This document shows positions 1,293 to 62,893 of a stretch of DNA of 64,000 nucleotides, piece after piece; the stretch's first letter is position 1; each line of letters starts with the position of its first letter. The DNA lies in the IMG/VR virus record IMGVR_UViG_3300005260_000047. One strand, 5' to 3'. This DNA is from a virus (Duplodnaviria > Heunggongvirae > Uroviricota > Caudoviricetes). The notes under the pieces were generated by a model. It saw only the letters and a list, made by a program, of their open reading frames with translations, searched no databases and had not been told where the DNA came from. The position numbers and the translations under genes are program-made.

Positions 1293-2537
1293 CTATCGAG
1301 ACAGGCCGCCAATCTCTACTTTGCGCACCGGATATTCCAGCTCGATGCAATAGCCGCCGGCGTCGGCGGAGTGTTCCACGCCGGCCGCCTTGTCTACATC
1401 GCGCGTGCCAGGCTTGTAAATGGTTTGTTCCAGCGCGTTGATGAAATGCTTGCAGCGCGCATCGACCTTCAACCGTACCGTGCCGTCGGCCGCCTTCAGC
1501 ATCCTGTTTACGGCATTGACGCGGTCAGCCACGAACGGATGCTTGCGGCGGTATTTGATGCGCTTGAAGCCTTTTTCTCGCAGGATGTCCAGGTCGGTCT
1601 CGCCGCGGGCGTGCTGGCGCTGGCCGCCGGCGGGGTCAGGGTAGACCACGATCTGCACCTGCTGACGCCAGTAGCGCTTCTCCAGCTCTTCGCAGACCTC
1701 TTCCGTGTTGGATCCGAACAGTACGATCTCATCCACCGCCCACAACTCACCGTTTTTCTGCGGCTGAAAAATCACCGCAGACATCGGGTCGATGTTGAAG
1801 TCCATACCAACCCAGATCGGCAGCTTCGGATTGAAGGCGTATTGGTCAACATGCTCGTTGCGGTCGAACGGATAGTAGACGCGGCCGGACATGGTTTCGA
1901 AGGATGCTTCAAACTCCTGCTTGAAGGATTTCTCGTCCATGTCGGCGCGCGCCGCCTCGATCTCGGACACAGGGATGAACGGCGACGTGATGGTCGGGAA
2001 TTGCCAGGACTCCCACAGTCCGCGCGTGACGTTCTTCGGATCCTGCCCCTTCTGGTAAATCGTGTAGAGGTAGTTGTAAGCCTTGGGCGTGCCGATGAAG
2101 ATTGCGTGGCCGCGGCGGTCAGCCAGCGTCGGGCGCAGGACTTTTGTCCAGGTGTCCTCGTCAATATCCTGGAATTCGTCCAGCACCAGAAAGTCCACGC
2201 CCACGCCGCGCAGCGAATCGCCCTTGTCGGCGCCCTTCAGTTCGATGCGGGTGCCGTTGACCAGCGTGATCGCCATATTGGTCTCGTTGACCTTGCGAAT
2301 CCAGCGCTTCGGGATAGCCTCCAGCAGATCGTTCCACATGATCTGCTTGGCCATCTTGTAGGTCGGCGCCACGTACCAGATTTTCGACTTCCGTTTTTTG
2401 GCGCGGGTAATGATCAGCACGCGGGATAATGCCGTCTTACCCCACCGGCGGCCGGCGACGACGACGCGAAAGCGCGCCGACGACTTGTAGACCGTCATCT
2501 GCTTGGGATGCAGCCGCAACGTGCTTCGCATCGCCAT
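1293..2537 (-). CDS. terL: Terminase large subunit (ATPase + nuclease)
   Basis: Walker A 'VVAGRRWGKTAL' and Walker B 'FLVLDEFQDI'. The C-terminal RNaseH-like nuclease region carries acidic residues. ATG at 2537, 1 nt after the terS stop. The track ORF 1293..2633 carries a non-coding-looking 32-aa N-terminal extension. Confidence 0.9.
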   Translation of the reverse strand: MAMRSTLRLHPKQMTVYKSSARFRVVVAGRRWGKTALSRVLIITRAKKRKSKIWYVAPTYKMAKQIMWNDLLEAIPKRWIRKVNETNMAITLVNGTRIELKGADKGDSLRGVGVDFLVLDEFQDIDEDTWTKVLRPTLADRRGHAIFIGTPKAYNYLYTIYQKGQDPKNVTRGLWESWQFPTITSPFIPVSEIEAARADMDEKSFKQEFEASFETMSGRVYYPFDRNEHVDQYAFNPKLPIWVGMDFNIDPMSAVIFQPQKNGELWAVDEIVLFGSNTEEVCEELEKRYWRQQVQIVVYPDPAGGQRQHARGETDLDILREKGFKRIKYRRKHPFVADRVNAVNRMLKAADGTVRLKVDARCKHFINALEQTIYKPGTRDVDKAAGVEHSADAGGYCIELEYPVRKVEIGGLSR

Positions 2538-2538
2538 G

Positions 2539-3168
2539 TCAGTCTTCCCTCTCCTCGACCACGCCGTTGTCGCCGTCAGGCCCGTCAGCCGGATCCTGCA
2601 CCGTCGGCAAGTCATCCAGGCCGGCATCGTCACGCTCGCGCAATTCCTGAATCTGCTCAGCGGTCAGCTCGGAAATGACCAATTCCGGCAGTTCGTCCGG
2701 ATCCACTGCGTCCGGCTTGTCCAGACCCAGAACGGCCCATTTCTCGGCGCGCGCCTTGGAAAGAACGCTCATCGCAGCATCCAGCGTCTTGATGTTGTTC
2801 AAGGCGGTGGCGATCGGAACGTTGTCCTGTTTGGTCTTGAGGATTTCATTCCAGGTGAGCTTGCCGATGGCGGATGCCATCTTGTAATGCTCTTCCTTGG
2901 TTTCCCTGATGCGCGCAGCCTGCACGGTTGCTTCATCGACTGCGGCTGCGGCCAGCTTTTCCTCGACCTTCTTCTTGGTGGCGGCTGCCTTGGCGCCCTT
3001 GATGACGCCATGCTTTTTGAAATGCCGCTCGAAGGTCGAGATCGACTTGCCGAACTTCTTGACCAAGTCCTCGTAAATGAAGTCGCCGGATTCCCACATG
3101 GCTTCTGCCTCGCGCCACTGCTTTGGCGTGAGGTTGCGTGTTTTCGGCTTTGTCGCGGTCTTCATCAC
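2539..3168 (-). CDS. terS: Terminase small subunit (HTH DNA-binding)
   Basis: Immediately upstream of terL. N-terminal HTH-like 'YEDLVKKFGKSISTFERHFKKHG' and an acidic C-terminus. The track start at 3168 is GTG; the in-frame ATG at 3165 has an AAGGA Shine-Dalgarno ~9 nt upstream. Confidence 0.6.
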   Translation of the reverse strand: MMKTATKPKTRNLTPKQWREAEAMWESGDFIYEDLVKKFGKSISTFERHFKKHGVIKGAKAAATKKKVEEKLAAAAVDEATVQAARIRETKEEHYKMASAIGKLTWNEILKTKQDNVPIATALNNIKTLDAAMSVLSKARAEKWAVLGLDKPDAVDPDELPELVISELTAEQIQELRERDDAGLDDLPTVQDPADGPDGDNGVVEERED

Positions 3169-3212: not shown

Positions 3213-3234
3213 CAAGGAGAACGTATGAAACGAA

Positions 3235-3263: not shown

Positions 3264-3270
3264 ACTCCTG

Positions 3271-4090: not shown

Positions 4091-5073
4091 GTTTCTTCCT
4101 TTTCTCCCCAATCCTCATCGGATTCGGGGTCAACAATGTCAGTGGTAATCTGGATCCGGCTTAATTGTTCCGCAGCGCGCGCAACATCCAATAGTGCGTC
4201 AACCGGCTGGTTGTCGAAAGCGATCAGCGGCAGCCGCGGCGGCAGCGCATGCTTGCCGAAGTCGGGATTGGCGAACACGCCATACAGCGGGCTGGCCAGG
4301 ACGAGCTGCTGCAATGATTTGATCAGGTAGCCGACTTCCATGCCTTCGACCCGACTGGTGCCGTTGGCGCGGTTGTCGCCGCTTTTCTCCATCGCCGAGC
4401 AGGTGTAATAGAACTTGCGCATTTCAGCGATACACTTGTCTCGCACCGGCGCCGGCATCGCATCGAGTTCCTGCTTTATGCCGACATAGTCCATCGGCAT
4501 GGATTCAAACCAGCGCGCAAAAAAGCGCAAACCCTTCTCGTAATTGGAAGAGCGGCTTGGCTTGGTAAAGCGCATGCCGGCCTTGGCTGCAAACGGGTTG
4601 AACTTGCTCATTGAGGACTGAAACTCAACAATGCGGCAGCCTGTCATGCGCATCATCAGACTTTGCATGCGGTAGGCAATGCCGGCGCCGCGGAACATGG
4701 TGTCCAGAACGAGCCGGCTGTTGGTGCAGATATGCGCGTTCAACCAGAGCGCGCGGTGGCGGTTAATCAGCTTGGTATCGCGTCCATTCGTGTTCGGGCG
4801 CATATGGGGCATCACCTTGTTGCGACCGCCCAAAAGCATCTTCGGCACTGTCATGACGCCCACGCCGATGACCTGCCCGTCCAGCATGGCGCGGTAGACC
4901 CTGGGGCCGATCCCCAGGTTTTCCGCCTTGTAGTGCAGCTCATGCAGCAAATCCCAATCTGCCTTGGTGCCGCGCTCGATGTAGATACGCGGCAAAAGCG
5001 ACAGCGAGTGCCTTTTTGGCGGTTCGCGCCGCTCGATTAGCACATCCTGGTTGTCCGCAACGATGGTGTGCAT
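4087..5073 (-). CDS. Hypothetical protein (329 aa) paired with a downstream ABC-type ATPase
   Basis: Start MHTIVADNQ at 5073. The track ORF runs to 5172, but the extra N-terminal residues are Arg/Pro-rich and look non-coding. No confident family assignment. Confidence 0.5.
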   Translation of the reverse strand: MHTIVADNQDVLIERREPPKRHSLSLLPRIYIERGTKADWDLLHELHYKAENLGIGPRVYRAMLDGQVIGVGVMTVPKMLLGGRNKVMPHMRPNTNGRDTKLINRHRALWLNAHICTNSRLVLDTMFRGAGIAYRMQSLMMRMTGCRIVEFQSSMSKFNPFAAKAGMRFTKPSRSSNYEKGLRFFARWFESMPMDYVGIKQELDAMPAPVRDKCIAEMRKFYYTCSAMEKSGDNRANGTSRVEGMEVGYLIKSLQQLVLASPLYGVFANPDFGKHALPPRLPLIAFDNQPVDALLDVARAAEQLSRIQITTDIVDPESDEDWGEKEET

Positions 5074-5352
5074 GATGTTACTTGCCCTTGGCCGGCGTGA
5101 CTGGCGGCTTGACGGTGGCGGGGTCGCGCGGCAGCTTCTTCGATACGTCAGTTTGGCCATTGCGGCGCGCAACCTCTTCTGCGATGCGGGTGGCCGGATT
5201 GGGCTTTTTAGGAAATTGCATGATTACTCCAGGTGAAATATCAAGAATCGGTTACGCCGCGACCATGTCGCCGCCGCTAAAGTCATCGTCGTCAAACAGC
5301 TTGGTCAGAAAATCGACAATGAAAAAGAAAATAATCGATGCCATATCGTTCC

Positions 5353-6021
5353 TCACGATGCGGTGGCGGCGTCCGCCTTGTATCCTTCCGGCGCGCGCAC
5401 GATCTTGATCTTCTCGCGGTAGCGCTTTTCGATGTAAAGGGTCGGCGCCAGGTCGTCAACCATGTCGTGATGGGTGGTTGCCACCAGCAGTGTGGCGCCG
5501 ACGCTTCTGGCCACTTTCTGAAGGTTGAAGGCGATCACCTTGGCGGTCGTGCGATCCAGCACCGCCAGGAATTCGTCAGCGGCCCAGACTTTCGCGCCGG
5601 ATTCGATGATTTTGGCCAGGCGGAAGCGGTAGCGCTGGCCGTCGGACAGTTCGGCCGGCTTGCGAATGTAGAGATAGGCGTCATTGATGCCGGCGATCGC
5701 CAGAAAATTCAGCGCCTCTTGCGTGGTCTTTCCGATCTGGTCGATTAGCGGCGCATCCAAGAGCGGCACTTTGTCGATATCGACCACTGACAAGCCTTGC
5801 TGCGTCATCTGTGCGGCCAGCTCGCGCAAGACGGTCGATTTGCCGGCGCCGGACTGGCCGGTCACATACACCACGTCGCCCTGCTCGATCTCGATCGGCT
5901 GATTGTCGAACACCACGAATTCCTTGTCGTCCAGCCCCAGGCCAAAGGCTTCGGCGATCTCCAGCACGCGCGGCGTGCGCTGCACTTCGGTGTGGAAACG
6001 CTTGTCAACGGTATAGATCAT
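5353..6021 (-). CDS. ABC-type ATPase, single nucleotide-binding domain with no transmembrane domain
   Basis: Walker A 'GQSGAGKST', ABC signature 'LSDGQRYR', Walker B/D-loop 'VWAADEFLAVLD' and H-loop 'VATTHH'. Confidence 0.8.
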   Translation of the reverse strand: MIYTVDKRFHTEVQRTPRVLEIAEAFGLGLDDKEFVVFDNQPIEIEQGDVVYVTGQSGAGKSTVLRELAAQMTQQGLSVVDIDKVPLLDAPLIDQIGKTTQEALNFLAIAGINDAYLYIRKPAELSDGQRYRFRLAKIIESGAKVWAADEFLAVLDRTTAKVIAFNLQKVARSVGATLLVATTHHDMVDDLAPTLYIEKRYREKIKIVRAPEGYKADAATAS

Positions 6022-6252
6022 TTTTCATCCCACATTTTCAGCACATCGACCGGCGTTAGTGTTGTAATTTCTGTCTGCGGCAGCTTGTAGCTGGCATGCG
6101 CATAAGCGCGCACCAGCGCCCACTTGACGACGCGGCGCGGCAACAGGTGGTAAGCAATCCAGGACGTGATCAAGTCTTTCATTTTCATCGTGTCTTTCTC
6201 AGTTCGCGCCAGGCGTGATGCAGCCACGTTTCCAGCTTCGGGTTGTCGAGCA

Positions 6253-8472: not shown

Positions 8473-10221
8473 TTGGCAAGCCCCATGACAACTGTTTCTA
8501 TCGCCCATAACGCCATCAACGCCAAGCTGCACGATCCGAGCCGCGAAGTGAAGCTCGAAGTGCAGTCAATCCTGTCGTACCGCATTGACGGCGCTGAGCA
8601 TTCGATTCAGTTCAAGCGCGGCTATTGGGATGGGCGCAGCTCATTTCTGGATTTCAAGTCGGGCGTGTTCCCCGCCGGCTTCATCCATTTCGTGTCGGCG
8701 CACCTGCGGCGCAAGGGTTACACGGTCAATATCGTGAAAAGACCGTTGCCGGCGCCCCTGGGGCCGGAAAAGCCGGTCGTGGACGGCTTCGGTGACGATC
8801 CGCGCTACGACTATCATGATCATGTCATCGACAAGCTGTTAAAGCATGGCCAGATCATCGCGCAGGTAGCCACCGGCGGCGGCAAGAGCCGGATCGCGAA
8901 GAAGGCATTCGCCCGCATCAACCGGCCCGCGATGTTTTTGACCACGCGCGGCATCCTGATGTACCAGATGCATGCCGCATTCGAGCGCGACCTTGGCATC
9001 AAGGTATCGATTCTGGGCGATGGGAAATTCGGGCATACGGTGGTTGACGAACACGGCAACGAGCGCATGGCCATCAAGAAAATGAGCGTGGCGATGGTGC
9101 AAACCCTGGTGGCCCGCCTGGAGGAAAAGACAGTCGATGGCGAGATCGAGAAGATGGTCGAGGCGCGCGTCAAGAAAGAGTTAAAGGAGCTGTCCGCCTA
9201 CCGCAAGAGTCTGGAAAAGAAAGGGCTGCCGGCACCGCAGATCACTATCCTGTGCAACAAGTTTGAACGAAAGCAGGAGGCGTCGCGCCCGTCCGAGAAG
9301 GAAGTCGTCGCAGTCGCGACCGCCAAGGTGGCCGAACACATGGCCTTGCGCGCCAAGACGATCGATCTTTTGAAGAAATTCGAGCTGGTAATCCTGGAAG
9401 AAGCGCATGAGGCATCCGGCAACTCCTATTACGAGATTCTGCGCCACTGTGCCAATGCGCATTACCGGCTGGCCTTGACCGCCACGCCCTTCATGAAGGA
9501 TTCGGAAGAGTCGAACATGCGGTTGATGGCTTGCTCCGGCCCGATCGCGATCAAGGTGTCGGAGGCGCTGCTGATCGACCGCGGCATCCTGGCGCAACCC
9601 TACTTCAAGTTCATCAAGGCGCGCCAGAAACCGGCCAAGCTGTTCAAGCACACCGGCTGGCAAAGCGCTTACCGGATCGGGATTGTCGAAAACCCTTATC
9701 GCAACGCCGATATTGTGGCCGAATGCGCGCGGTTTGCCGGCTACGGGCTGACTTCGATGGTGCTGATTCAGCAAACCGCGCATGGCGATCGCCTGGTGAA
9801 CATGATGACGGCAGCCGGCCTGCGAGTCGAATTCATCAAGGGTGAGGATGATCAGGACGGCAGAAAAGCCGCATTGGCGCGACTGGCTGCCGGCGAGCTG
9901 GACGTATTGATCGGCACCACCATCCTCGATGTCGGCGTGGACGTGCCGGCGGTCGGTCATGTTTGCTTGGCCGGCGGCGGCAAGGCGGAGGTGGCGCTGC
10001 GCCAGCGGATTGGCCGCGGGTTGCGCGCCAAGAAATTCGGCCCGAACGTCTGCTTCGTCACCGATTTCGAGGACGAGTTCAACACGCATCTGCGTGAGCA
10101 TGCCAAGACCCGTCAGGCGATCATCGAGGGAACGCCAGGCTTTGACCGATACATTCTGCGCAATGGCGCCGACTTTGATCTGAAGGGCTTGGGCTTTTCG
10201 CGTCTGGCGGCAGCGGCTTGA
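8473..10221 (+). CDS. SF2 DEAD/DEAH-box helicase
   Basis: Motif I 'ATGGGKSR', motif II 'ILEEAHEA', motif III 'TATP', motif VI 'QRIGRGLR'. There is an N-terminal ~120-aa extension. The 361-aa antisense ORF 9181..10266 is rejected. Confidence 0.85.
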   Translation: MASPMTTVSIAHNAINAKLHDPSREVKLEVQSILSYRIDGAEHSIQFKRGYWDGRSSFLDFKSGVFPAGFIHFVSAHLRRKGYTVNIVKRPLPAPLGPEKPVVDGFGDDPRYDYHDHVIDKLLKHGQIIAQVATGGGKSRIAKKAFARINRPAMFLTTRGILMYQMHAAFERDLGIKVSILGDGKFGHTVVDEHGNERMAIKKMSVAMVQTLVARLEEKTVDGEIEKMVEARVKKELKELSAYRKSLEKKGLPAPQITILCNKFERKQEASRPSEKEVVAVATAKVAEHMALRAKTIDLLKKFELVILEEAHEASGNSYYEILRHCANAHYRLALTATPFMKDSEESNMRLMACSGPIAIKVSEALLIDRGILAQPYFKFIKARQKPAKLFKHTGWQSAYRIGIVENPYRNADIVAECARFAGYGLTSMVLIQQTAHGDRLVNMMTAAGLRVEFIKGEDDQDGRKAALARLAAGELDVLIGTTILDVGVDVPAVGHVCLAGGGKAEVALRQRIGRGLRAKKFGPNVCFVTDFEDEFNTHLREHAKTRQAIIEGTPGFDRYILRNGADFDLKGLGFSRLAAAA

Positions 10222-10290
10222 TGGAAACAGCTTGCGAAGGCCACTTATTTCCGGTATGGTGATCATTCACTACTTACTTATGGTGCGGAT

Positions 10291-10524
10291 ATGACCCAAG
10301 CGATGTTCATTTTGCTGTCCTACATCGGCGCAATCGTCGGATTGACCGCCTTTCTTCATAATCCGGTGGTGTTGCTGGCCTTGGCCTTCGTTCCTTCCTT
10401 AATGCAAGACCTGCCTTTCGGTCTGATCGCCGCGCAAATGCAAGCTGACGCGGTATCCGGCATGGATCCGGACGACGAGGCGCAACCAATGGGCTTTACG
10501 CAAAACGTGCAATCCAAAAAGTAA
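10291..10524 (+). CDS. Small membrane protein
   Basis: Two hydrophobic helices (ILLSYIGAIVGLTAFL, VVLLALAFVPSL). Followed by a terminator. Confidence 0.5.
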   Translation: MTQAMFILLSYIGAIVGLTAFLHNPVVLLALAFVPSLMQDLPFGLIAAQMQADAVSGMDPDDEAQPMGFTQNVQSKK

Positions 10525-10545
10525 TCTTTCCTTGAATGTCCTTTT

Positions 10546-10570
10546 AAGCGCCTTCGGGCGCTTTTTTTTG
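10546..10570 (+). terminator. Rho-independent terminator (AAGCGCC-ttcg-GGCGCTT plus T8)
   Basis: Perfect 7-bp stem followed by tttttttt, directly after the 10291..10524 gene. Confidence 0.7.
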
Positions 10571-10628
10571 CACGTATAAGCGACACGCAAGCTATAATCA
10601 TCGCATTCGATGCACGTAAGGGAAAATC

Positions 10629-10937
10629 ATGCCAAGAATGAAAGATGCGCCGGTCAATCCGGATGAAGTGAGCCGCTATACGCAACGCCTGACCAACCGG
10701 CACCAATTCAAGTTGGCACAGCTCGCCAAAGAACACATGATCAGCCAGCAGGAAGTGTTGGAGGTCATGATCGACCAGCTCGACCTGGACGCAATGGGGC
10801 CGCTCTTCAAGAAAATCCGCGAAGACAAGGTGACTGCGCGCACCCAGAAGAAGGAATTGGTCAAGCAGCTCGCCAAGCTCGATGTGAAAGAGCTGGAAAA
10901 GTTAGTCGAGCGCGATAAACAGGAGGCATCAGCGTGA
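10629..10937 (+). CDS. Hypothetical protein (charged, helical)
   Basis: 102-aa ORF, K/E-rich. Confidence 0.45.
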   Translation: MPRMKDAPVNPDEVSRYTQRLTNRHQFKLAQLAKEHMISQQEVLEVMIDQLDLDAMGPLFKKIREDKVTARTQKKELVKQLAKLDVKELEKLVERDKQEASA

Positions 10938-12257: not shown

Positions 12258-12397
12258 TGCTGCTTAATATTTCATCAACTCTGCTTGATGCTTGTGCGCG
12301 GTTAGTAGTGCGTTATCAAGTGCGCGCACTGCGCACACCATGCATGACACTGTAGAAACAACGAACACTAAAACGATTGCGAGATTTTTAAACATGA
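12258..12397 (-). CDS. Small hydrophobic peptide (45 aa), putative
   Basis: Hand translation gives MFKNLAIVLVFVVSTVSCMVCAVRALDNALLTAHKHQAELMKY. GGGAAA lies 8 nt upstream. Confidence 0.2.
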
Positions 12398-12424
12398 TCT
12401 TTTTCCCTGTTTGATGTTTGAGAA

Positions 12425-12446
12425 CTAGACCGCTTGCGCGGTCTAG
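12425..12446. repeat. Perfect inverted repeat CTAGACCGC-ttgc-GCGGTCTAG
   Basis: 9-bp arms immediately downstream of the 12462..13055 gene and next to a motif site at 12451..12465. Confidence 0.6.
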
Positions 12447-12461
12447 TAATTCACTAATGAC

Positions 12462-13055
12462 TTATGCGTTTGCGGTAAATAACGCGCTAAATGCTTTCGC
12501 TCTGTCATTGTCACAAAACCGCGTTATATCATTACGCTTGCCCTTTTGAACTTCGCAGATACCGAGATGCAAAAACATCATGCGCGTTGATGATGCTTGC
12601 GTTGATGCTGTACCCGCAGTGCATGACAAGCGCCCTATCAACGCTTTCGCTTGCTCTAATTCATCGTATTGCACCGCAGTAGACAAGCACATAAGGGTTT
12701 CTTTGTTGTTCAAATCATCAACTTTCAAAAGATTCTTTACAATCGCCCTTGTATATGGGTCAACTTCGCTTTTCAGGTTTTGACCGAGTGCAACCAATGA
12801 AGAAACAATTTTAACTAACACTTTGACCGCGATAAAATTCGCTTTGTCTTGCTTATGGTCTGCAATACGCGCTTTTTTCAATAGGTCTTTTGCGAGTTCT
12901 GCAAACTCAGGTTTGCTCATGACTAGATCAATAGCTGCTGAACCTGCTTGCGCGTTATTCAATGCGGTTTGTGTATCTTTGCTGAACTGTTCAGCATTAC
13001 GGGCGGTCAACACTTCAACGAATTTCACTGAAAAGGTTTTAGCTTGCTTAGACAT
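12462..13055 (-). CDS. Hypothetical all-alpha protein in an AT-rich island
   Basis: 197 aa. Local GC is visibly lower than the surrounding sequence. Confidence 0.55.
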   Translation of the reverse strand: MSKQAKTFSVKFVEVLTARNAEQFSKDTQTALNNAQAGSAAIDLVMSKPEFAELAKDLLKKARIADHKQDKANFIAVKVLVKIVSSLVALGQNLKSEVDPYTRAIVKNLLKVDDLNNKETLMCLSTAVQYDELEQAKALIGRLSCTAGTASTQASSTRMMFLHLGICEVQKGKRNDITRFCDNDRAKAFSALFTANA

Positions 13056-13104
13056 GATTTTTTCCCTTGTTTAGTTTGCTGCATCAACGTGATGCAGTAA
13101 CTAC

Positions 13105-13133
13105 ATAATAATTCACTACGGACTTATTTACAA
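13105..13133 (-). promoter_or_regulatory. Sigma70-like promoter TTGTAA-N17-TATTAT with an operator-like half-site in the spacer
   Basis: Minus strand reads TTGTAAataagtccgtagtgaatTATTAT, upstream of the 12462..13055 gene. Confidence 0.5.
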
Positions 13134-13445
13134 GCTTTTTTGCACGTATTTTTGAATTTATTTTTACATGCTTATTTTTGTTGTATTTGTGCAAATCGCT
13201 TGACATACGTGCAAAAACAAGATACACGCATGCGCGCACGCAGTCTTAGGATAGGCGTCGGCTTGGCGCGGGGTTGGAAGAGGCGCCCGACCGGCGCATC
13301 CTGGGCATATCAGGAAAACCTGCCATACAGCCGTTCCTAGGCCCGCAGCCGTATTCAGGCACAGCGCCGTACCCGGCCGGCGAGCCAGATCCTAGGCATG
13401 GGCGTGACGTGGAAAAGCGCCGATGCCAGCGCTTTCCTGTCAGGC

Positions 13446-24582: not shown

Positions 24583-24608
24583 ATAAAAAAGCGGCCCATT
24601 CGGGCCGC
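24583..24608 (-). terminator. Rho-independent terminator (GCGGCCC-attc-GGGCCGC plus U7)
   Basis: Perfect 7-bp GC stem. The A7 on the plus strand is a U-run on the minus strand. It follows the HicA-like gene. Confidence 0.7.
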
Positions 24609-24626: not shown

Positions 24627-24845
24627 TCAGACCGGCGCGCCCGCTTGTCTTGCCTGGCTGATCCAGTTCAGCGTGGCGCGGCGATCGCTTGGGGTCTTGG
24701 GTATGACGAGCGTCGCCTTACCGTCCGGACTGCGTAGTTTCGGGTGGCGATTGCCAATGATTAGTTCCCATCCTTGCTTGATCAAGTTCTTGACGATAGC
24801 ATTGATCTTGTCGCAGGTGGAATATCTTCGCATGGTTTTACTCAT
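24627..24845 (-). CDS. HicA/YcfA-like small protein (orphan)
   Basis: 'LIKQGWELIIGNRHPKLRSPDGKATLVIP' resembles the HicA dsRBD-like fold. No adjacent HicB-like ORF was found. Confidence 0.45.
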   Translation of the reverse strand: MSKTMRRYSTCDKINAIVKNLIKQGWELIIGNRHPKLRSPDGKATLVIPKTPSDRRATLNWISQARQAGAPV

Positions 24846-25585: not shown

Positions 25586-26266
25586 TCATGACTCATCCTT
25601 TCCGCTGTCTTGTGCGCTTGGCTGGCTGGCGGCATAGAGGGGCTCAATCCACGCATCACGCCACCCATGAAAATCTATCTGCTCGGCCATCCAACTTTCT
25701 GCTGATTTCAAGTCAAAGAAACCTGCGGGCAGCGCATAATCTGGCTGTATTGGCTGGCCTTTTGCGACACGATGCACAATCCAATGCTTCGCTACAGGCT
25801 CAGGGGAGGGCTGCGCTTTTACCTTTTCAAATAAATCTTTATAGGTGTTATATAGGTTAAGCGCAGTCCTCATTTCTTTTGCTGAGAAGGTCAGCGACTT
25901 TTCATCTTCGGTATTTCTCAATGTACTTAGAATTTCTTTAACACTCCGATCAGCTTGCTGCGCTCCCTGTGCCGGATCGGCTGGCGCGTCAAGTTGAGCG
26001 CACCTCCATCCGGTCAAAACAGCGTAATCCCATAAAGCCCCGATGCTCGGGTAGGGCATATCCTCCGGGAACTTCGGTAAGTTTGGAATGGAGATGCTGC
26101 GCATCGTCGCGGCTGGCGCATCCAGTTGAGTGCATAGGGCTGCTATTGCATCCTTAGCCTTTGCGACATGGCATTCCGGCGCATCGTTGTCTGGTGTGTC
26201 GCCGTCGCAAAAGGGTTTCAGGGCTTCTATCGCTTGCTCCATCGCCTTGCGCTGTGCGTCAGTCAT
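25586..26266 (-). CDS. Hypothetical protein
   Basis: 226 aa with a 4-nt overlap to the RF-like gene. Confidence 0.5.
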
Positions 26267-27015
26267 GCGAACCTCGGTTTAGTTGGTTGATCGTCTTTAA
26301 GCGGAGGAATCTTGGCCTGCAGCTTTTCGATATGCCTTGCCTGCTGCAACGCAAGTTCTTCCACGCTGTCTACGGCGTAAAAGTCCATGAGCTGCTTTAA
26401 CTCTGGCGCTACCGGCTCGGCTGGCTTGGATGCTTGGGCAAGCAGAGCGCGTACATCGCGGACGAATTCGAGCAAACGAACACCGTCGGGGAAGTGCCAC
26501 CCCGTGGCTGTCCATACCGTGTGGCTATGCGCTAACTCATATATTTCCCCGTCGCTGATCTGCGGGGAGGGCGCTACCAGCTCGGCTGTCTGTACCAGCT
26601 CGCTGGCATGGCTGGCGGCTACGTACTTGGCGTACAGTTTTGCCACATCCCGCAAAGCTACGGTATCGTAATCGGGGTGAATATCGTCCCCCTCTTTCCA
26701 GTATCCAAACGATGCCGTACTGATTGCAGCTAGCCGCATTACTTCCCGCTCATCCATCACTTCTGGCGCTGCGCTGGTGGCTTCCGGCAGGTCCACCTGT
26801 GCCGGTTCGACTGGCAAATTCGCCAGAATGCACCGCAGCTTCTCCAGCGCCACAGCCTTATTCTTGTGCTGACTGCGATCACCTGAGTATTCAACCGCAA
26901 TGCCTGACGGCAGATGCGTCAGGCGAACACCAGCATCATGCTTGGCAATAAAGCCACCTCCACCACCAGGAATGAAGGTGTCAATGCGCAAATCTTTCGG
27001 ATCGATTTCTACCAT
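26263..27015 (-). CDS. Class-I release-factor-like (GGQ-domain) protein with GGQ replaced by GGG, plus a 180-aa C-terminal extension of unknown function
   Basis: The N-terminus '[63 protein letters not shown]' aligns residue by residue with RF1/RF2 domain 3 ('...[49 protein letters not shown]...'). The sequence was re-translated by hand from the DNA. Confidence 0.7.
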
Positions 27016-27458
27016 GCTCCTACTCCTCCTAATACATCGTCGTCAGCCGCGGTAGTCGGCTTGTTCGGGTCGGGTGGCGGTGGCGGCGTCAAGATATTTC
27101 CCTCTTCAACGAACTCGCCTGCCTCGTCTATCTGGCTTTCTGTCCATTTCTCAAGGAATTCCTGATACCGTTTGATGCCCGCCTCTTCAGTCGGGAATGC
27201 CTGGTCGTTGTCCACCGGATCGTTGACCAGCGTGCCATCCTGCTTGTAATTCTTGACCAGCAGGATGAATACCGGCCAATATTCGGCATACGTCGATGCG
27301 GCCGCGCCATCGATCCGGCCATTCCATTGCAGCGTGACGCGCACCACGCCATTGTCATATTCCTTGACCGTCTTATAGGCAGGGTCAGCTTGCAGCTTCT
27401 TCCACTGCGCTTCGCTAATTGCCTTGCCTTCACGGTCGCGATATTGAGTTCGTGCCAT
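27009..27458 (-). CDS. Hypothetical protein
   Basis: 149 aa; Pro-rich segment PPPPPDP. Confidence 0.45.
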
Positions 27459-27467: not shown

Positions 27468-27614
27468 TCACTGCACGCTAACTGCCGCCGGCGCCGTTTC
27501 CCGCCTGGCTTTAGCGCCGTTCTTAAGCATGTCTGACACCGTGACCGCCATAATGGCGATGATGGAGATAACGATCGCCAGTTCGATCAGGGTGAATCCT
27601 TTTGCATTTCTCAT
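27468..27614 (-). CDS. Prepilin-type N-terminal cleavage/methylation-domain peptide (48 aa)
   Basis: 'MRNAK-G|FTLIELAIVISIIAIMAV' is a class-III leader with G-1/F+1/E+5, checked by hand. GAGGAAAG Shine-Dalgarno. The ORF-track frame 27468..27830 has a non-coding-looking 5' extension. Confidence 0.5.
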   Translation of the reverse strand: MRNAKGFTLIELAIVISIIAIMAVTVSDMLKNGAKARRETAPAAVSVQ

Positions 27615-34052: not shown

Positions 34053-34481
34053 TCAAATCTTTTTCATTTGTCGAAGGCGTTGATCGACATCCCTGTCGAT
34101 ACGCCGCTGTTCTTCAGATACCGGCTCATGCCAGCCTCGCTCATTTCTCGTCTGCTTTGGTCGCGCCCGATACCAGTCAACAGCGAGTTGCGCCTGCTCT
34201 CGTTTCAGGATCAAATCTGGAAGGATTGCCTCAAGAAGCGCTGCCGCCGACTCGCCCTGGATAAGCCAGTTGAATTTCTCTCTCGCGCCGCGTGATGGAT
34301 ATTTACTCACCTTGCCGCCGAACCGCCCCTGCATACTGTTCAAAAGGCTTTCCGACTCAAGGCTTTTGTTTTGGACGACTTGAACGACTAGCGTGTGGGA
34401 GGACTTCCGCCCATTCTCATAGACGGAAATACAGCCTTCACCATCCACAAAACCTGCGATATAAGCGAGTGGCGGACACAC
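34053..34481 (-). CDS. LAGLIDADG-family homing endonuclease (single-motif, free-standing)
   Basis: 'LAYIAGFVDGEGC' is the LAGLIDADG motif. It lies 2 nt downstream of rtcB. Confidence 0.7.
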   Translation of the reverse strand: MCPPLAYIAGFVDGEGCISVYENGRKSSHTLVVQVVQNKSLESESLLNSMQGRFGGKVSKYPSRGAREKFNWLIQGESAAALLEAILPDLILKREQAQLAVDWYRARPKQTRNERGWHEPVSEEQRRIDRDVDQRLRQMKKI

Positions 34482-34482: not shown

Positions 34483-35697
34483 TTAGTTTCCTTTTACGCA
34501 CAAAACCTGCTTCAAAACATGCAGGACTTCCACAAGGTCTTGTTGATTAGCCATTACTTCGTCAATGTTTTTATAAGCCGAAGGAATCTCGTCCAGCACC
34601 GCGTCGTCCTTGCGGCACTCCACGCCTTTGGTTTGCTCGACCAGATCGCGGATCGTGAATTTCTTTCTGGCTGCCGAACGGCTCATGGCGCGGCCGGCAC
34701 CGTGGCTGCATGAGCAATAAGCTTCATGATTGCCTTTGCCGCGCACGATGTAGCTGCGCTGACCCATCGAGCCAGGAATGATGCCGAGATCGCCTTCGCG
34801 GGCGCGAATAGCGCCTTTTCGCGTGACCCACAGATTGCGGCCGAAGTGGTTTTCCTTCTCCACATAGTTGTGGTGACAGTTGATCGCCTCCTGTGTGATG
34901 GTGAATTCCTTCGGGATGTGCCGGCGCAGCGCTGCGATCACCACATCCATCATCACGCGGCGGTTTTCCAGCGCGTAGTCTTGCGCCCACTTGACCGCCT
35001 CGACGTAGTCGTTGAAGTCGTCAGTGTCTTCCGGCAGATAGGCCAGGTCGCCATCTGGCAGGTGGATGAAATACTGCTCCATGCGGCGCTTAGCCTTTTC
35101 GATGAAATAGCTGCCGATCATATTACCGATGCCGCGGGAGCCAGAATGCAGCATGATCCACACATCCTGGTTCTCATCCAGGCAGAGTTCGATGAAGTGA
35201 TTGCCAGAGCCGAGCGAGCCGAGTTGCGTTCTCGCCTTGTCGTTACGACCGATAAGAGCCGGATGCTTCTGCTCAATACGATGAAGCGCGCACCACATAT
35301 CCACTTGTGCCGGCGAATTTAACGGACGCGCAGGGTCGTTTGCTCCACCCGCACCAAGCGGCACATCACGCTCGATCTGACCGCGGATCGCCGCCAGGGA
35401 GTCCGGCAGGTCGGTTGCCTTCAGCGACAATCGCACCGCATTCATGCCGCAACCGATGTCAACACCAACGGCAGCAGGAATGATCGCTTTATCGGTCGCA
35501 ATCACGCTGCCAATAGTGCTGCCCTTGCCCGCATGCACATCGGGCATCAAGGCAACGCCGTTACCCGCAATGAAGGGCAGGCGCGCGAGATTCTTCGCTT
35601 GTTGCAGCGCTTCATCCTCGATCTGCAACGCGCCGTCTTCATTCTCGCCAACCCACGCCTTGATAGGGCGCGAACCTTCTTCCTTGATTACTTTCAT
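34483..35697 (-). CDS. rtcB: RtcB RNA 3'-phosphate ligase
   Basis: 'MPDVHAGKGSTIGSV', 'GVDIGCGM', 'HSGSRGIGN' and the C-terminal 'CSHGAGRAMSR' (catalytic His). Confidence 0.9.
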   Translation of the reverse strand: MKVIKEEGSRPIKAWVGENEDGALQIEDEALQQAKNLARLPFIAGNGVALMPDVHAGKGSTIGSVIATDKAIIPAAVGVDIGCGMNAVRLSLKATDLPDSLAAIRGQIERDVPLGAGGANDPARPLNSPAQVDMWCALHRIEQKHPALIGRNDKARTQLGSLGSGNHFIELCLDENQDVWIMLHSGSRGIGNMIGSYFIEKAKRRMEQYFIHLPDGDLAYLPEDTDDFNDYVEAVKWAQDYALENRRVMMDVVIAALRRHIPKEFTITQEAINCHHNYVEKENHFGRNLWVTRKGAIRAREGDLGIIPGSMGQRSYIVRGKGNHEAYCSCSHGAGRAMSRSAARKKFTIRDLVEQTKGVECRKDDAVLDEIPSAYKNIDEVMANQQDLVEVLHVLKQVLCVKGN

Positions 35698-58551: not shown

Positions 58552-59811
58552 TTATGCAAGCATATCGGCCACCTTTTCAAATATCGCCTTCAAGACTTCC
58601 GCCTTGCTAGAATCGAAAATGATCTGTTGCGCATTGATGCCGCAGACGATTGAGGCATCCAGCGCCGGATCGTAAATCACCCTGCCCGCCAGCTCCGCGG
58701 TGCCACCCTTGACGCCAGGCACGAAGCGCTTGATGGCGGCACTCCCCAACGCTACGATGATCGGCGGCTTGATCAGCGCAATCTCATGGTCAAGAAACGC
58801 CTTGCAGCCGTTGATCTGCCCGTTGGAAAGGAACTTGTCGTTTTTCTTCGCCTTGACCAGCGTCGTGTAATAGCCATCGGCCGGCGACAGCCCGACATCC
58901 GTAATGGCGGCTTTGATGAAATCAGCCGCATCCCCTTCAAGCAGCTTGTCTGCTTTTTCTTCCTGCCAGGATGGGCAGTCTGATACCACCATGAACTTGA
59001 TGTTAGCCTTCATGCGCACGGCCGGATGAGGCTGACCAGCCAAATCGCAACCTTCACACTTGCGGTAATCCTGGATCAAATGAATGATCTTGGTGCGCAA
59101 GAACGGATCCTTCACATCGGTCGAGCGATCCGCCTTGACGCTATCGATAATCAGTCCTGGCATCAGGTCGAGCTGATCCTTGCGGCGATCCAGATGCCGT
59201 GCAGGTTTGCTTCCCGCCTCAATATCGGCAAGCGCACCAACCAGCCGCAGATTCTCGACCACCTTGGCGTTGACCTTCGAGCCTGGCTGTGAAGCTGCCA
59301 GCATGAATTCTTCAGCCGTATCGAAGCGGCCCTTGCATGGCGAATCTTCATCCAATCCATAGACTGCTTCGATCGTGCCGTCGCGCTTCTTTTTCTGCTT
59401 GACGACTTTCCAGCCCCGATTGCGCTCCCGCAATTCAACAATGCGCTTTGCCGTGTTTTCAGAAATGCCCTTGACGCTTGAGAAGGGCGCCAAAAGATGC
59501 TTGTCGTCGGGAATAGTGAAGCGATGTGTGGAGCGGTTGACATCGGGCGGCAAGACCTCGATGCCATACTCGCGCGCATCCTTGACCAGCCCTTCGAGCT
59601 TGTCGTCGCCTACGATCGACAGGCAAGCGGCAAAGTATTCAGCCGGATAGCGCACCCGCAGCCACATTGTCCAATAACTCACAATCGAATATTCAATGGC
59701 GTGTGATCTGTTGAATCCATATCCGGCGAACGCGGCGATCTTGTCGAACAGACTATCTGCCGCCGACTCACTCATGCCATTTTTAAGCGGCTTGACACTC
59801 TTGATTTTCAT
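58552..59811 (-). CDS. DNA polymerase III alpha (DnaE-type) C-terminal fragment, plus a possible UDG-like C-terminal domain
   Basis: '[43 protein letters not shown]' matches DnaE '[35 protein letters not shown]'. This continues where the 60539..62893 ORF loses homology. Confidence 0.7.
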   Translation of the reverse strand: [419 protein letters not shown]

Positions 59812-60496
59812 TATTCATCCTCACTAAATTGTGAATCTGCGTCCGCGACACATCAAACATTTCCGCCAACTTTTGAATGGTGGCACCCTCCGCCCGCTTT
59901 TTCTTTACCTCCAGCTTTTCGCTGTCAGTCAAAAAACGCACGACACGTTTCGCCTCGGTCAGCGGGCCGCCAGCATTGGGCCACTTCTTTCCTGCGCAGA
60001 TATGCCACACGTAGACATCAGGCAAGTTGTAGTCTTTGCCGATCGAAGCAAGCGACTCGTCATTCGCACGCCGGCACCTGATTGCCACAACATCCTTCTC
60101 CTTCAACTTGTGCCAGGAAATCAGCTCGCCTGCTGGTTGCGTTCCGTGCATCAGCTTGTCTTCGCAGTTCTCTGTTGGCGTGCCGTAGCGCAGGTTAGCC
60201 AGTCTATTGTTGGACGGGGTGTTATCACCGTGAAGAACGTAATACCCTTCAGGGCAAGGCCCGACGAACGCCTCCATCACAAGCCGGTGTCCGAAATCAC
60301 AATGCCTAACTCCCGCCACCGAGAACTCAAACCAGTGATAACCCCAAGGGTGGCGACGCGACTTGAGAATTCGCCCGCGCGCCAGCCGCTTATGGCCGTT
60401 CTTGCAGTTAACCATCGAATCAACCCTCCTAACGCGGCCTTGATCCGATACCTCGATCACATTTCCAAACCTGGCGAGTGGCTTCCAGACTTCCAT
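59783..60496 (-). CDS. HNH homing endonuclease inserted within the DnaE gene
   Basis: 'GYYVLHGDNTPSNNRLANLRYGTPTENCEDK' is the HNH motif. C-terminal HTH 'TIQKLAEMFDVSRTQIHNLV'. Confidence 0.8.
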   Translation of the reverse strand: MEVWKPLARFGNVIEVSDQGRVRRVDSMVNCKNGHKRLARGRILKSRRHPWGYHWFEFSVAGVRHCDFGHRLVMEAFVGPCPEGYYVLHGDNTPSNNRLANLRYGTPTENCEDKLMHGTQPAGELISWHKLKEKDVVAIRCRRANDESLASIGKDYNLPDVYVWHICAGKKWPNAGGPLTEAKRVVRFLTDSEKLEVKKKRAEGATIQKLAEMFDVSRTQIHNLVRMNNENQECQAA

Positions 60497-60670
60497 GTTG
60501 ATTACCTTCGATGAATGGGCAAGAAAGACACGTTACACTCACCACTGACTGATGTCAACACCGTCTTTGATGGCGGTTTCAACCGTCCTTTTAATGCCAT
60601 CGACGCACATGAACTTGGCGCTGCGATGCACGCGCTTGATCGTGCCATCCTCCAGCTCGACCTCGATCTC
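59785..60670 (-). mobile_element. ~0.9-kb intervening sequence splitting dnaE (group I intron with an HNH ORF, or a free-standing HEG insertion)
   Basis: DnaE homology stops ~43 codons before the stop of ORF 60539..62893 and resumes at residue ~10 of ORF 58552..59811. The HNH ORF fills the gap. Confidence 0.5.
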
Positions 60671-62893
60671 GCCCGCCGCCGCGCCTTCGACGAACTTCTT
60701 GCGCTGCTCCTCCATCTCCGCAGGCAGCTTCTTGCCCATGATCTTGCGCAACTTGTCGGCGTCCGCCATCGAATACCCCGCCAGGTCACGCGCCACCTGC
60801 ATCACCTGCTCCTGATAGACAATCACGCCCGACGTGGACTTGAGCGCCGCTTCCATGTTCGGATGGTCGTAGTAGGGAGCTTTTGCCCCCTGCTTGATTT
60901 GCACGAAGTCTTCCATCAGGCCCGAATCCATCGGGCCAGGACGGTAGAGCGCGGTCGCCGCGGTAATATCTTCGAACGTCAGCCGGCCGCCCTGCGCCAA
61001 GTCGCGCAGCAGCTTTTTCATGCCAGGTGATTCGAACTGAAACACGCCGGTCGTGTCGCCACGACCGAAACTATCCATGATGTCCGGCTCTTCCAACGGC
61101 AGGCTGATGTACGAAATATTCCTGCCATGCCGATCCTTGATGTATTGACGGGCGATCTCCAGCACATCGAGTGTGGACAGCCCCAAAATATCCATCTTGA
61201 CCAAGCCCCAATCTTCCACTACGCGCTTATCCCAATTGACTACAGGAATGCCTTCCTCGTCGCGGGTCTCCAGCACGGCGCGGTTGATCAGCGGCTCGCC
61301 ACCGACCACCACACCGGCCGCATGCTTGGCAAACGCCCGCATGACGCCTTCGAGCTTGAGCGCGTGATTCCAGATTTCAGCATGCTCGTCGCGGAATTTC
61401 TCCAGCTCCGGCACGACTTTCGCCGATTCAGTCAGCGTGTAGGACTGACCATGCTCTTTCGGCACCAGCTTGGTTGCCGACAGCGTCAAGTTATCCAGCT
61501 CGTAGACGCGGCCCGCATCGCGCAGCGCGGAGGCTGACGCCAGCGTCGAGAAGTTCGAAATGCCCGCCACACGATCGGCGCCGTGTCGATCACGCAGGTA
61601 GTCAATCACCTCATGGCGGCGCGTGGACATGAAGTCCAGGTCGGCGTCGGGCAAGTCAAGGCGCTCCGGATTGATGAAACGCTCAAACAGCAAATCAAAG
61701 CGCAGCGGATCGACATCAGTAATGCCAACCAAGTAAGCGACCAGCGAGCCACCGACCGAACCACGGCCAGGGCCGACGATGATGCCGTTCTTCTTGGCCC
61801 ACATGACCAGATCCTCGACCAGCAGAAAGTAGCCGGCAAAGCCCATCTTTTTCAAGACCGCCAGCTCGTATTTCAGACGCTCCTGGTATTTGGGAATATC
61901 GGCAGCGTCAGGCTTGTAACCCAATATCGGCTGCGTAAAGCGGCGCTTCCAACCCTCGATGCATTTCTTGCCGAGCGCTTCGAATTCATTGGTCGCCATC
62001 TGCGGCAGCGAGACCGGCAGTTTCTTGAATTCATAGGTGCAGGCGGCGGCCAGCGTGTCGATGTTTTCGAGACCCTGCTTCCACAATGCTGCTTCATTAA
62101 CGCCATTCCATTTAACCTGACGCTTGTGCGCTTCGACCATTTTCTTGCCAAGATTGAGCGCTGGCTTGAAGCCAAAGTCGCGCACATGCTGGACGGGCCG
62201 GTAGCGCACCGACATTTTCGTGTTGGTCGTGATGGCATTCAATACCGACAGCGTGCCGGCATCAGCATCGTCCTGATACATGAATGGGTACGTGACCAGT
62301 GTCGGCAGACTACAATCCTTCGCTACCTTCAACGCCTTTGCGTTTAACGTATCAAAGAGTGGCGTATTAATTGGCGTCAGTTCCACATACAAGCGCTCAA
62401 AATTGCAGCGCAGCGCCGCGATCCGGTCGGGGTATTGCGGATGATGAAACAGATTGAAGAAGTCGCCAGTCGTGACCGCGACGCCCTCCAGCTCCAGCAC
62501 GTCCTTCCAGCCGACGCGAGAATGATAGTAGAAGTATTCCTTGCTATTGGCTTTGGACAAGAGCTTCAACAGGGAATTGATGCCGCGCTCGTCGGTGGCG
62601 TAGACCTTGATCATCACCAGCGGGTTCGGCTCTTCCTTGATGCCGGAAGATTTGGAAGGCTTGCGGTAGGTCGGATCATCCACCACGCGCAGCCGGCAGC
62701 CGATGATCGGCTTGATGCCGGCTTTCTTGCAGCGGTTGGAAAAATCAACCATATTGTGAATGGACATATCATCCACCAGCGCGACCGACTGATAGCTGTG
62801 CTTTTTCGCCTGCTCGATGATGTGATCCACCTGAAGCAGAGAATTGCCGACCGAGAAGTCAGAGCGCACCGATAAGGCGTGATTGATGTTCAT
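60539..62893 (-). CDS. dnaE: DNA polymerase III alpha (DnaE-type) N-terminal part (PHP, palm, thumb, fingers)
   Basis: PHP N-terminus; 'GPGRGSVGGSLVAYLVGIT', 'DPLRFDLLFERFINPER...PDADLDF' (catalytic Asp pair), 'KMDILGLSTL', 'GDTTGVFQFES', 'ALYRPGPM' and 'VYQEQVMQVA'. Confidence 0.9.
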   Translation of the reverse strand: MNINHALSVRSDFSVGNSLLQVDHIIEQAKKHSYQSVALVDDMSIHNMVDFSNRCKKAGIKPIIGCRLRVVDDPTYRKPSKSSGIKEEPNPLVMIKVYATDERGINSLLKLLSKANSKEYFYYHSRVGWKDVLELEGVAVTTGDFFNLFHHPQYPDRIAALRCNFERLYVELTPINTPLFDTLNAKALKVAKDCSLPTLVTYPFMYQDDADAGTLSVLNAITTNTKMSVRYRPVQHVRDFGFKPALNLGKKMVEAHKRQVKWNGVNEAALWKQGLENIDTLAAACTYEFKKLPVSLPQMATNEFEALGKKCIEGWKRRFTQPILGYKPDAADIPKYQERLKYELAVLKKMGFAGYFLLVEDLVMWAKKNGIIVGPGRGSVGGSLVAYLVGITDVDPLRFDLLFERFINPERLDLPDADLDFMSTRRHEVIDYLRDRHGADRVAGISNFSTLASASALRDAGRVYELDNLTLSATKLVPKEHGQSYTLTESAKVVPELEKFRDEHAEIWNHALKLEGVMRAFAKHAAGVVVGGEPLINRAVLETRDEEGIPVVNWDKRVVEDWGLVKMDILGLSTLDVLEIARQYIKDRHGRNISYISLPLEEPDIMDSFGRGDTTGVFQFESPGMKKLLRDLAQGGRLTFEDITAATALYRPGPMDSGLMEDFVQIKQGAKAPYYDHPNMEAALKSTSGVIVYQEQVMQVARDLAGYSMADADKLRKIMGKKLPAEMEEQRKKFVEGAAAGEIEVELEDGTIKRVHRSAKFMCVDGIKRTVETAIKDGVDISQW

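Follow-up and report, generated by a model that had tools for sequence, protein, structure and literature searches.

A phage-encoded release-factor domain without the GGQ glutamine and its clade of relatives with an aromatic residue at the motif

Few residues in biology are as conserved as the glutamine of the GGQ motif in peptide chain release factors (RFs). In the window, i.e. the whole 64,000-nucleotide stretch of DNA from the IMG/VR virus record IMGVR_UViG_3300005260_000047 (Caudoviricetes), we identified a gene for a 250-amino-acid protein whose residues 2-69 are, judged by sequence profiles and a structural model, a bona fide RF-1 domain (release-factor domain 3) and in which this glutamine is absent. 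The protein belongs to a coherent phage clade that retains the ribosome-facing scaffold of the domain, yet swaps the glutamine for tryptophan or phenylalanine. We tentatively propose, as a possible rather than a probable reading, that the phage protein is a domain 3 turned into a non-catalytic docking module for the peptidyl-transferase centre (PTC) and A site, joined to interchangeable acidic helical modules.

The gene is an ATG-started open reading frame (ORF) at 26263..27015 on the minus strand, encoding 250 amino acids plus a stop according to the ORF list and its translation, and the protein sequence quoted in the original prediction, which was made from the DNA letters alone, proved exact. 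That prediction had also assigned the N-terminus to RF domain 3, on which Pfam, PHROG and PDB sequence matches now agree. The Pfam family RF-1 (PF00472) matched residues 2-69 with E = 1.8e-14 (54.1 bits vs. a gathering cut-off of 35), the protein group phrog_20323 ("RF-1 domain peptide chain release factor") matched with E = 4.6e-18, and phmmer searches of PDB sequences returned RF1 and RF2 chains at E~3e-13 and PrfH at 4e-6. Over 60 residues, the domain is about 50% identical to domain 3 of RF1/RF2, with values of 55-59% for cellular RF1. The match to PF00472 covers only profile positions 5-74 of 116, and the Pfam search of the protein gave no PCRF (PF03462) match; domains 1, 2 and 4 are thus absent, as had been predicted. 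An equivalog-level score, PCRF and the decoding superdomain 2/4 with its PxT/SPF motif, all expected of a full-length RF1/RF2, are lacking, and the RF-like part amounts to 66 residues. The NCBIfam prfA/prfB models gave a local match of 58 bits vs. equivalog cut-offs of 400, 423, and 370, TIGR03072 (PrfH) reached 44.4 bits vs. 166.65, again local to the GGQ domain, and the ArfB model NF006718 scored 11.2 bits vs. a cut-off of 100.

The fold was modelled with AlphaFold2 (AF2) from a 38-sequence alignment. Residues 1-66 (26818..27015, minus strand) have the predicted RF-1 / release-factor domain 3 fold, with three strands (residues 9-14, 29-34, and 39-43), a GGQ-type loop and a long helix (residues 49-66); the pLDDT of these residues is mostly 80-96, with block values of 90-96 outside the loop and 70 in loop residues 21-30. 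A Foldseek search of the PDB with this model, a check suggested together with the original prediction, placed ribosome-bound RF1/RF2, mitochondrial mtRF1a/mtRF1 and PrfH at the top with probability 1.0, and the top local match (6c4h_v) had a TM-score of 0.82 and an rmsd of 2.8 Å over 62 residues. Phage RF-1 proteins in BFVD also match the N-terminal domain structurally. The strand-to-helix loop R47-S-Q-H-K-N-K53 (26857..26877, minus strand), which faces the PTC, contains R47, H50 and N52, which according to the alignment and a contrast analysis vary little or not at all, whether in the Gln-less clade or in true RFs. The protein therefore has the score, the fold and the RSQHxN[KR] loop of the RF-1 family, and lacks its GGQ tripeptide.

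The tripeptide at the place of GGQ is G20-G21-F22 (26950..26958, minus strand), as supported by alignments, spacing and mixed glycine codons. The loop reads PGGGGGF and holds no glutamine under any gap placement. Because it is one residue shorter than the loop of cellular RFs, the residue standing for the glutamine varies with where the gap is set: HMMER pairs G21 with the glutamine and F22 with the following histidine, a profile-profile alignment against 60 cellular RFs puts G20-G21 on the two glycines, deletes the glutamine and puts F22 on the histidine, and a profile-profile alignment against the closest GGQ-bearing phage proteins lays GGF on GGQ, gap-free at the motif. The last placement is supported by agreement in spacing. 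The glutamine precedes the VRITH strand by 8 residues in 135/150 cellular RF representatives and by 7 in the sister phage proteins with GGQ, and the aromatic residue of the Gln-less sequences stands 7 residues ahead of the strand in nearly all cases (two differ by one residue). Read from these alignments, the motif is better written as GG[F/W], and the query as "GG-F, no Gln" rather than "GGG". Of the original prediction, which had the glutamine changed to glycine and the histidine to phenylalanine, the loss of the glutamine thus holds, whereas the assignment of G and F reflects HMMER gap placement only, one of the three found.

A sequencing error or frameshift in the glycine run was considered and ruled out. 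The stretch is encoded by cct ggt ggt gga ggt ggc ttt, and these mixed glycine codons exclude a homopolymer error; moreover, the same protein was called, in identical form, on five metagenome contigs, the longest of which is a 260,452-bp contig from soil, and the clade is conserved. The scenario put forward as a refutation of the original prediction, in which all homologues keep GGQ and the window carries an error, thereby fell, as the relatives are Gln-less too. As a separate observation, a terminator scan returned a 10-pair hairpin (G-T pairs allowed) with a T-rich tail at 26955..26980 on the minus strand, over the codons of the Gly-rich loop. This hairpin is probably a by-product of the GGN repeats, and hairpin counts equal the shuffled expectation.

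To delineate the clade, residues 1-76 were searched exhaustively with HMMER against 1.84 billion representatives, giving 4,771 matches at E≤0.001; a word-indexed homologue search with the N-terminal 76 amino acids alone returned no match. The top three matches (P0121, P0122, and P0123, 62-67% identity) read GGGGGW, GGCGGF, and GGSGGF, respectively, and the glutamine is absent in 17 of the best 150 representatives. A profile search with the clade alignment yielded mostly short GGQ-bearing fragments and added only two members, so that the set of 25 Gln-less sequences comprises the 17 from the best 150, these two, four from IMG/VR loci, gp1 of the Pseudomonas phage TehO (…PGASAW…), and the query. 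For the scan of viral contigs a 4-sequence alignment was used, the 19-sequence alignment being too diverse for scanning; a scan of the genome_contigs collection with the same 4-sequence alignment was swamped by host prfA genes and was uninformative. Neighbour-joining on 171 domain sequences groups the 25 Gln-less ones, without exception, into one clade; here the query is the neighbour of P0121 (GGGGGW, 67% identity), and the only GGQ-bearing near relatives of the clade are phage mini-proteins with a short loop. The residue after the glycine pair is tryptophan (n = 14), phenylalanine (n = 9), leucine (n = 1), or methionine (n = 1), and never glutamine (n = 0). The glycine pair itself is intact in 14/25 members, and the remaining ones read SG, TG, PS, SA, GH, GN, or SN at this place. 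A survey of homologues for a conserved GGG, as first envisaged, thus gave a different outcome: the signature of the clade is the aromatic residue after the glycines, and the query is no singular "GGG" oddity.

All tested clade members exceed the Pfam RF-1 threshold and have no further Pfam domain, and some are already deposited from cultured phages, labelled simply "release factor". Stand-alone RF-1 proteins of 70-130 amino acids that carry GGQ were also observed in IMG/VR (loci L006, L013, L014, L016, L018, L020-L022, L025-L027, L029, and L030). A loop one residue shorter than that of cellular RFs is found in GGQ-bearing proteins as well (L006, L013, L014, L016, L020, and L030), and L006, L016, L018, and L029 are the nearest GGQ-bearing relatives of the Gln-less clade.

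Although the clade sequences are only 37-60% identical, their scaffold residues are invariant and the aromatic residue is conserved. D8, R31, T33, H34, P36, G38, R47, S48, H50, N52, A56, and L60 are conserved in the clade and in RFs alike. In contrast, the loop inserted into the PTC (S-G-A-G-G-Q-H-V-N-x-T-x-S-A), at least 80% conserved in RFs, is unconserved in the clade. On this comparison, the clade retains the RSQHxN[KR] half of the catalytic site and has rebuilt the PTC-inserting loop around an aromatic residue. This pattern also bears on the trivial explanation that the gene is what remains, decaying and functionless, of a prfA fragment captured from a host, or that it arose as an artefact of assembly or sequencing. 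While the 55-59% identity to cellular RF1 is compatible with host capture, the ORF is intact, has a strong ribosome-binding site and is translationally coupled on both sides, its glycine codons are mixed, the identical protein occurs on the five contigs, and an invariant scaffold with a positively conserved aromatic residue is kept across the divergent clade. We regard this explanation as extremely unlikely and largely refuted.

How far the loss of the glutamine speaks to the loss of hydrolysis is a separate matter. Shaw and Green reportedly found in 2007 that the glutamine contributes only modestly to hydrolysis in vitro, and less than do the backbone amide and the two glycines; if so, losing the glutamine alone is no proof of lost hydrolysis. 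A better argument for inactivity, also read from the sequences, is that 11/25 members have lost a glycine and that the loop after the motif is unconserved. As the glycine pair is kept in only 14/25 members, hydrolysis would not appear to be the function under selection.

If the protein is indeed a non-catalytic docking module, its domain would dock in the A site of the 50S subunit, with the loop at the PTC beside the CCA end of the P-site tRNA, where the aromatic side chain would stack on a nucleotide. The docked domain would not hydrolyse the ester or release the peptide, and would thus occupy, or plug, the A site and PTC. Depending on its affinity and timing, such a plug would block host termination, rescue or elongation; alternatively, it would shield phage-programmed, damaged or stalled ribosomes from termination and rescue factors. 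What a bare domain 3 is missing, be it affinity, oligomerisation or partner binding, would come from the C-terminal modules, and a role beside RNA repair by the RNA ligase RtcB would be a plausible subset of this model. In its most specific form, the proposal would make the proteins with Trp or Phe for Gln a phage-specific class of plugs, whose aromatic residue sits on A76 or a PTC nucleotide and blocks both hydrolysis and access to the A site. Phages might use them to bring host translation to a standstill, to keep host rescue or abortive-infection factors away from ribosomes and nascent chains during RtcB-type repair, or to deliver fused enzymes, such as the 2H-phosphoesterase-like fusion in the clade member P0181. 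We consider this form possible, but on the doubtful side.

Several points weigh against a ribosomal plug. Ribosome binding is a prediction drawn from the conserved scaffold and loop. The lone GGQ domain of ArfB needs a basic C-terminal tail for ribosome binding (PMC3950681), and the query has neither such a tail nor the domains 2/4 used by RF1/RF2/PrfH; instead, its C-terminal 180 amino acids are acidic (pI 4.1-5.7). Both glycines are kept in the query, so that residual hydrolysis is possible, and the arrangement of the domains in the AF2 model is uncertain (pTM 0.34). Furthermore, no neighbour gene is conserved across the clade loci that would point to a partner. Given that domain 3 on its own binds the ribosome poorly and that the extension here is acidic, the modules would have to bind a ribosomal protein or another partner, or else the target is not the ribosome.

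The last possibility would make the protein an off-ribosome decoy that binds a host factor recognising RF domain 3, e.g. PrmC (the GGQ methyltransferase), a defence protein or a toxin, with the aromatic residue in the glutamine pocket, thereby lowering host termination or disarming the factor. Such a role would fit the conservation of the domain-3 surface alongside the remodelling of the PTC-specific loop around an aromatic residue, an acidic, non-RNA-binding remainder suited to protein-protein interaction, the presence of 2b3t (PrmC on RF1 domain 3) among the Foldseek matches, and a gene context of the early-region, anti-host type. Yet a decoy is pure conjecture; neither a partner nor a co-occurring gene was found, and the conserved RSQHxN[KR] loop is described as part of the ribosomal catalytic site rather than of a protein interface. 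We rate it as quite unlikely.

The genomic contexts of the clade add an RNA-repair aspect. We looked up 11 contexts (the contig of the query and those of 10 clade members), and barring two contigs of <2 kb and that of P0181, they are small phage-type gene arrays with neighbours that include an integrase, a Cro-like repressor, DNA polymerase A, thymidylate synthase and lysis genes. The window itself encodes an RtcB RNA ligase (34483..35697, minus strand; Pfam E = 4.3e-129, phrog_1075 E = 8e-153) on the same strand as the RF-like gene, 7.5 kb and about 14 genes apart, which the original prediction had missed. An ORF resembling LAGLIDADG homing endonucleases (34053..34481, minus strand) directly follows this rtcB gene. 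In a second context, P0181 (motif GGGGGW; L114:7451-8578) lies 1.2 kb from an rtcR (3174-4802)-rtcB (4997-6220) pair whose RtcB is 51% identical to that in the window. Independently of the clade, GGQ-bearing phage RF-1 genes occur <10 kb from rtcB in 2/28 IMG/VR loci, L009 (678-1043; RtcB 9867-10904) and L024 (9764-10375; RtcB 12307-13422), an arrangement in which phages may mirror the pairing of PrfH with RtcB. RtcB is absent from 12/14 clade contexts examined, and the link of the clade to RtcB-type RNA repair is weak, a lead rather than a finding.

These neighbourhoods nevertheless bear on the alternative that the protein is a still-active, codon-independent peptidyl-tRNA hydrolase similar to ArfB or PrfH, which, together with the phage RtcB, would free ribosomes jammed by host RNases that act in defence. 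The PrfH-RtcB2 paradigm (PMC6514570) and the idea of phage ribosome rescue (PMC7824862) are established, and the proximity of rtcB in the window, near P0181 and in the two GGQ-bearing loci would fit such a function. The query also has G20-G21, and the reportedly modest in vitro contribution of the glutamine side chain would leave room for activity. Other features speak against an active hydrolase: one or both glycines are missing in 11/25 members and the glutamine in all of them (0/25), the segment after the motif, which is the catalytic helix in RFs, is unconserved, and the query has neither the basic tail nor a decoding domain. In addition, 12/14 contexts are without RtcB, and approximately 14 genes lie between the two genes in the window. 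We consider an active hydrolase unlikely.

P0181 suggests yet another role, namely that of a targeting subunit for the repair of RNA or the processing of its ends, on the ribosome or at the 3' end of tRNA; it would bring a 2H phosphoesterase or RtcB to damaged RNA near the A site. The N-terminal 140 residues of P0181, fused N-terminally to the GGGGGW RF-like domain encoded beside rtcR-rtcB, contain two H-x-T-x motifs and are 41% identical (E = 2e-24) to ORF42 of the Pseudomonas phage Ab18, annotated as "RNA ligase" (phrog_755, E = 2e-21). Ab18 ORF42 in turn matches LigT_PEase and Acb1, both 2H phosphoesterases, if weakly (Pfam E = 0.005). For P0181 itself, the 2H assignment is putative, as Pfam and PDB sequence searches with its N-terminus were negative and a single-sequence AF2 model had a pLDDT of 36. 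The presence of RtcB in the window would also suit a repair subunit. Still, only one fusion and two neighbourhoods are at hand, the 2H assignment stands on the weak match of a homologue, Acb1-like 2H enzymes act on cyclic nucleotides and not on RNA ends, and the query protein has no enzyme domain. This role, too, is quite unlikely in our estimate, and the non-catalytic docking module, tentative as it is, remains the reading that we prefer.

The second component of the proposed docking module, the C-terminal 180 residues, has no counterpart in Pfam, PHROG, the PDB or BFVD, and a homology search returned no full-length homologue of the 250-amino-acid protein. Residues 67-87 (26755..26817, minus strand) are a low-confidence, acidic, proline-rich linker (pI 4.05; pLDDT <50 at residues 75-81). 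They are followed by a promiscuous module modelled as a helical hairpin (residues 88-133; 26617..26754, minus strand; helices H89-106 and H118-146), which is 70-86% identical to stretches of >100 metagenomic proteins that are unrelated in other respects, and is also present in a 551-amino-acid protein of the Ralstonia phages Firinga and Hennie. In the full-length search, nearly all of the 120 matches listed align only here. This module may serve in shuffling or oligomerisation. Residues 134-250 (26266..26616, minus strand) form further acidic helical modules without a family (pI 5.4-5.7), parts of which are shared with a few proteins in blastp searches (P0023, P0057, P0062, and P0078). Overall, residues 88-250 are predicted to fold into helical hairpins and one small β-hairpin (pI 4.7-5.7), and after residue 66 the protein has 30 acidic vs. 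17 basic residues. The original description of a C-terminal region of about 180 amino acids without a recognisable family accordingly stands as far as Pfam and PHROG are concerned, but not for residues 88-133, in view of their wide recurrence.

Across the clade, the RF-like domain is found at the N-terminus, in the middle or at the C-terminus of the proteins, beside unrelated orphan regions. Such a variable position with unrelated partners is typical of modules that serve as effectors or in targeting. The partner region of P0126 has an N-terminal motif of the Ead/Ea22 type by eye, although Pfam reports no such domain, and other members have Cys-rich N-termini that by eye resemble zinc ribbons. 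TehO gp1 (L001:14-508) has a different C-terminal region, basic and aromatic (…GYWRVS…), that is common to the IMG/VR loci L008 and L032, so that the clade has at least two distinct C-terminal architectures. From the arrangement of these sequences, the mosaicism of the clade is module shuffling of phage early proteins, with the RF-like domain as the sole constant piece.

In the window, the RF-like gene (complete coding sequence at 26263..27015, minus strand, with the RF-domain-3-like N-terminus followed by the acidic helical modules) is preceded by a strong ribosome-binding site, AGGAGGAGTAGGAG, read directly from the sequence immediately 5' of the ATG (27017..27030, minus strand). The start codon shares bases with the TAG stop of the upstream gene (ATGGTAG), and the TGA stop overlaps the ATG of the downstream gene (ATGA); because of these overlaps with both neighbours, the gene is part of a minus-strand operon whose cistrons are tightly coupled. 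The upstream gene (27009..27458, minus strand) encodes 149 amino acids with a weak match to phrog_5241 (unknown function), and the downstream gene (25586..26266, minus strand) 226 amino acids without a family. The operon had been predicted to include a prepilin-like peptide, and the tightly overlapping genes do include one of 48 amino acids, MRNAKGFTLIELAIV… (27468..27614, minus strand), with a Pfam N_methyl match on the called gene, which overlaps the end of an upstream gene for 119 amino acids. At the operon end, a HicA-toxin-like ORF for 72 amino acids (24627..24845, minus strand) has a weak Pfam match and a phrog_2089 match (E = 5e-10). Of all terminator-like hairpins in the region, the strongest (7 G-C pairs and a T-run) follows this ORF at 24591..24608.

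The nearby genes are of the early-region type and include an Ead/Ea22-like 66-mer, the HicA-like 72-mer, a DnaQ-like exonuclease, an SPFH protein and many orphans. That the window comes from a phage is clear, in line with what had been proposed: it encodes a terminase large subunit (1293..2633), subunits of ribonucleotide reductase (RNR), thymidylate synthase, SbcC/SbcD, a UvsX-like recombinase, a single-stranded DNA-binding protein (SSB) and a DnaE-type polymerase that is split over two ORFs, for which Rhizobium phage polymerases are the closest (49% identity). The DnaE region comprises ORFs at 58552..59811, 59783..60496, and 60539..62893 (all minus strand), its two parts correspond to phrog_405 positions 44-770 and 766-1172, and an ORF for 237 amino acids of unknown function lies between the two DnaE ORFs. 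Neither a second RF-like gene nor a tRNA was found in the window, the phage collection contained no nucleotide-level relative of the region, and there was no synteny between the neighbour genes in the window and other RF-domain-bearing loci. A recoding role, one of the functions first considered, was rejected, as the window gives no hint of a changed genetic code and its ORFs are normal under table 11.

If PTC binding without hydrolysis holds true, the clade would be a bacterial-fold counterpart of Pelota and Balon, a new viral way to manipulate or protect the translation machinery, and a natural probe of the role of the glutamine position in the PTC. Annotation is affected as well, dozens of phage genes being labelled "peptide chain release factor / peptidyl-tRNA hydrolase" although the catalytic residue is missing from their products. 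That phages carry this domain is already known and annotated, while the clade with Gln exchanged for an aromatic residue and its mosaic architecture appear to be undescribed. In our literature search, we found no paper that describes or characterises phage RF-1 domain proteins or Gln-less variants. A comparative survey of release factors reports that RF1/2, ArfB and PrfH all retain the glutamine and does not mention phages (PMC6514570), a survey of jumbo phages covers RtcB and PTH2 but not RF-1 domains (PMC7824862), and phage genome papers only list "peptide chain release factor / peptidyl-tRNA hydrolase" genes without a functional study (PMC3483164, PMC9583779).

Among known systems, domain 3 of RF1/RF2 shares with the query the fold, the VRITH-P-T/S-G strand and the RSQHxN[KR] loop, whereas the query lacks the glutamine, has a loop shortened by one residue in which an aromatic residue follows the glycines, has lost the H-V-N-x-T-x-S segment, and has no domains 1, 2, and 4. 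ArfB (YaeJ), ICT1 and C12orf65 resemble it in combining a stand-alone domain 3 with an extension in the absence of decoding domains. However, these proteins keep GGQ and an inserted helix, while the query has GGF and no insertion between the THLPSG strand and RSQH, and the basic C-terminal tail of the ArfB group binds the empty mRNA channel (PMC3950681), in contrast to the acidic extension of the query (pI 4.05-5.67). PrfH (RF-H), which together with RtcB2 rescues and repairs ribosomes with damaged 16S rRNA, similarly lacks domain 1, occurs in mobile or conflict contexts and has RtcB nearby, but it keeps GGQ and a domain-2/4-like sensor, both lacking in the query, and directly adjoins rtcB, which in the window lies 7.5 kb and about 14 genes from the RF-like gene. 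The small phage-encoded RF-1 domain proteins (phrog_20323, phrog_3122), e.g. gp1 of the Pseudomonas phage PA73/TehO and those of Acinetobacter phage 133 and mycobacteriophage cluster C (gp209), are proteins of the same kind, although GGQ is kept in 22/28 IMG/VR loci and the C-terminal modules of the query differ.

The query is less singular than first thought, and there are precedents for Gln-less RF homologues. Dom34/Pelota, Balon and plant PrfB3 are RF relatives without the catalytic glutamine that were reused as non-hydrolytic A-site binders or RNA-binding proteins: Dom34/Pelota is a Gln-less release-factor homologue that binds without hydrolysis (PMC6514570), Balon lacks GGQ and keeps the PTC in an inactive state (PMC10901736), and PrfB3, a paralogue of RF2 from which SPF and GGQ have disappeared, has become a protein that stabilises RNA (PMC5897788). 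Pelota and Balon differ in having the unrelated archaeo-eukaryotic (aeRF1) fold with three domains kept, and PrfB3 in being a full-length plant RF2 paralogue; none of the three is phage-borne, consists of a single domain or has a conserved aromatic residue at the motif. By analogy, we think that the query may work like these Gln-less homologues.

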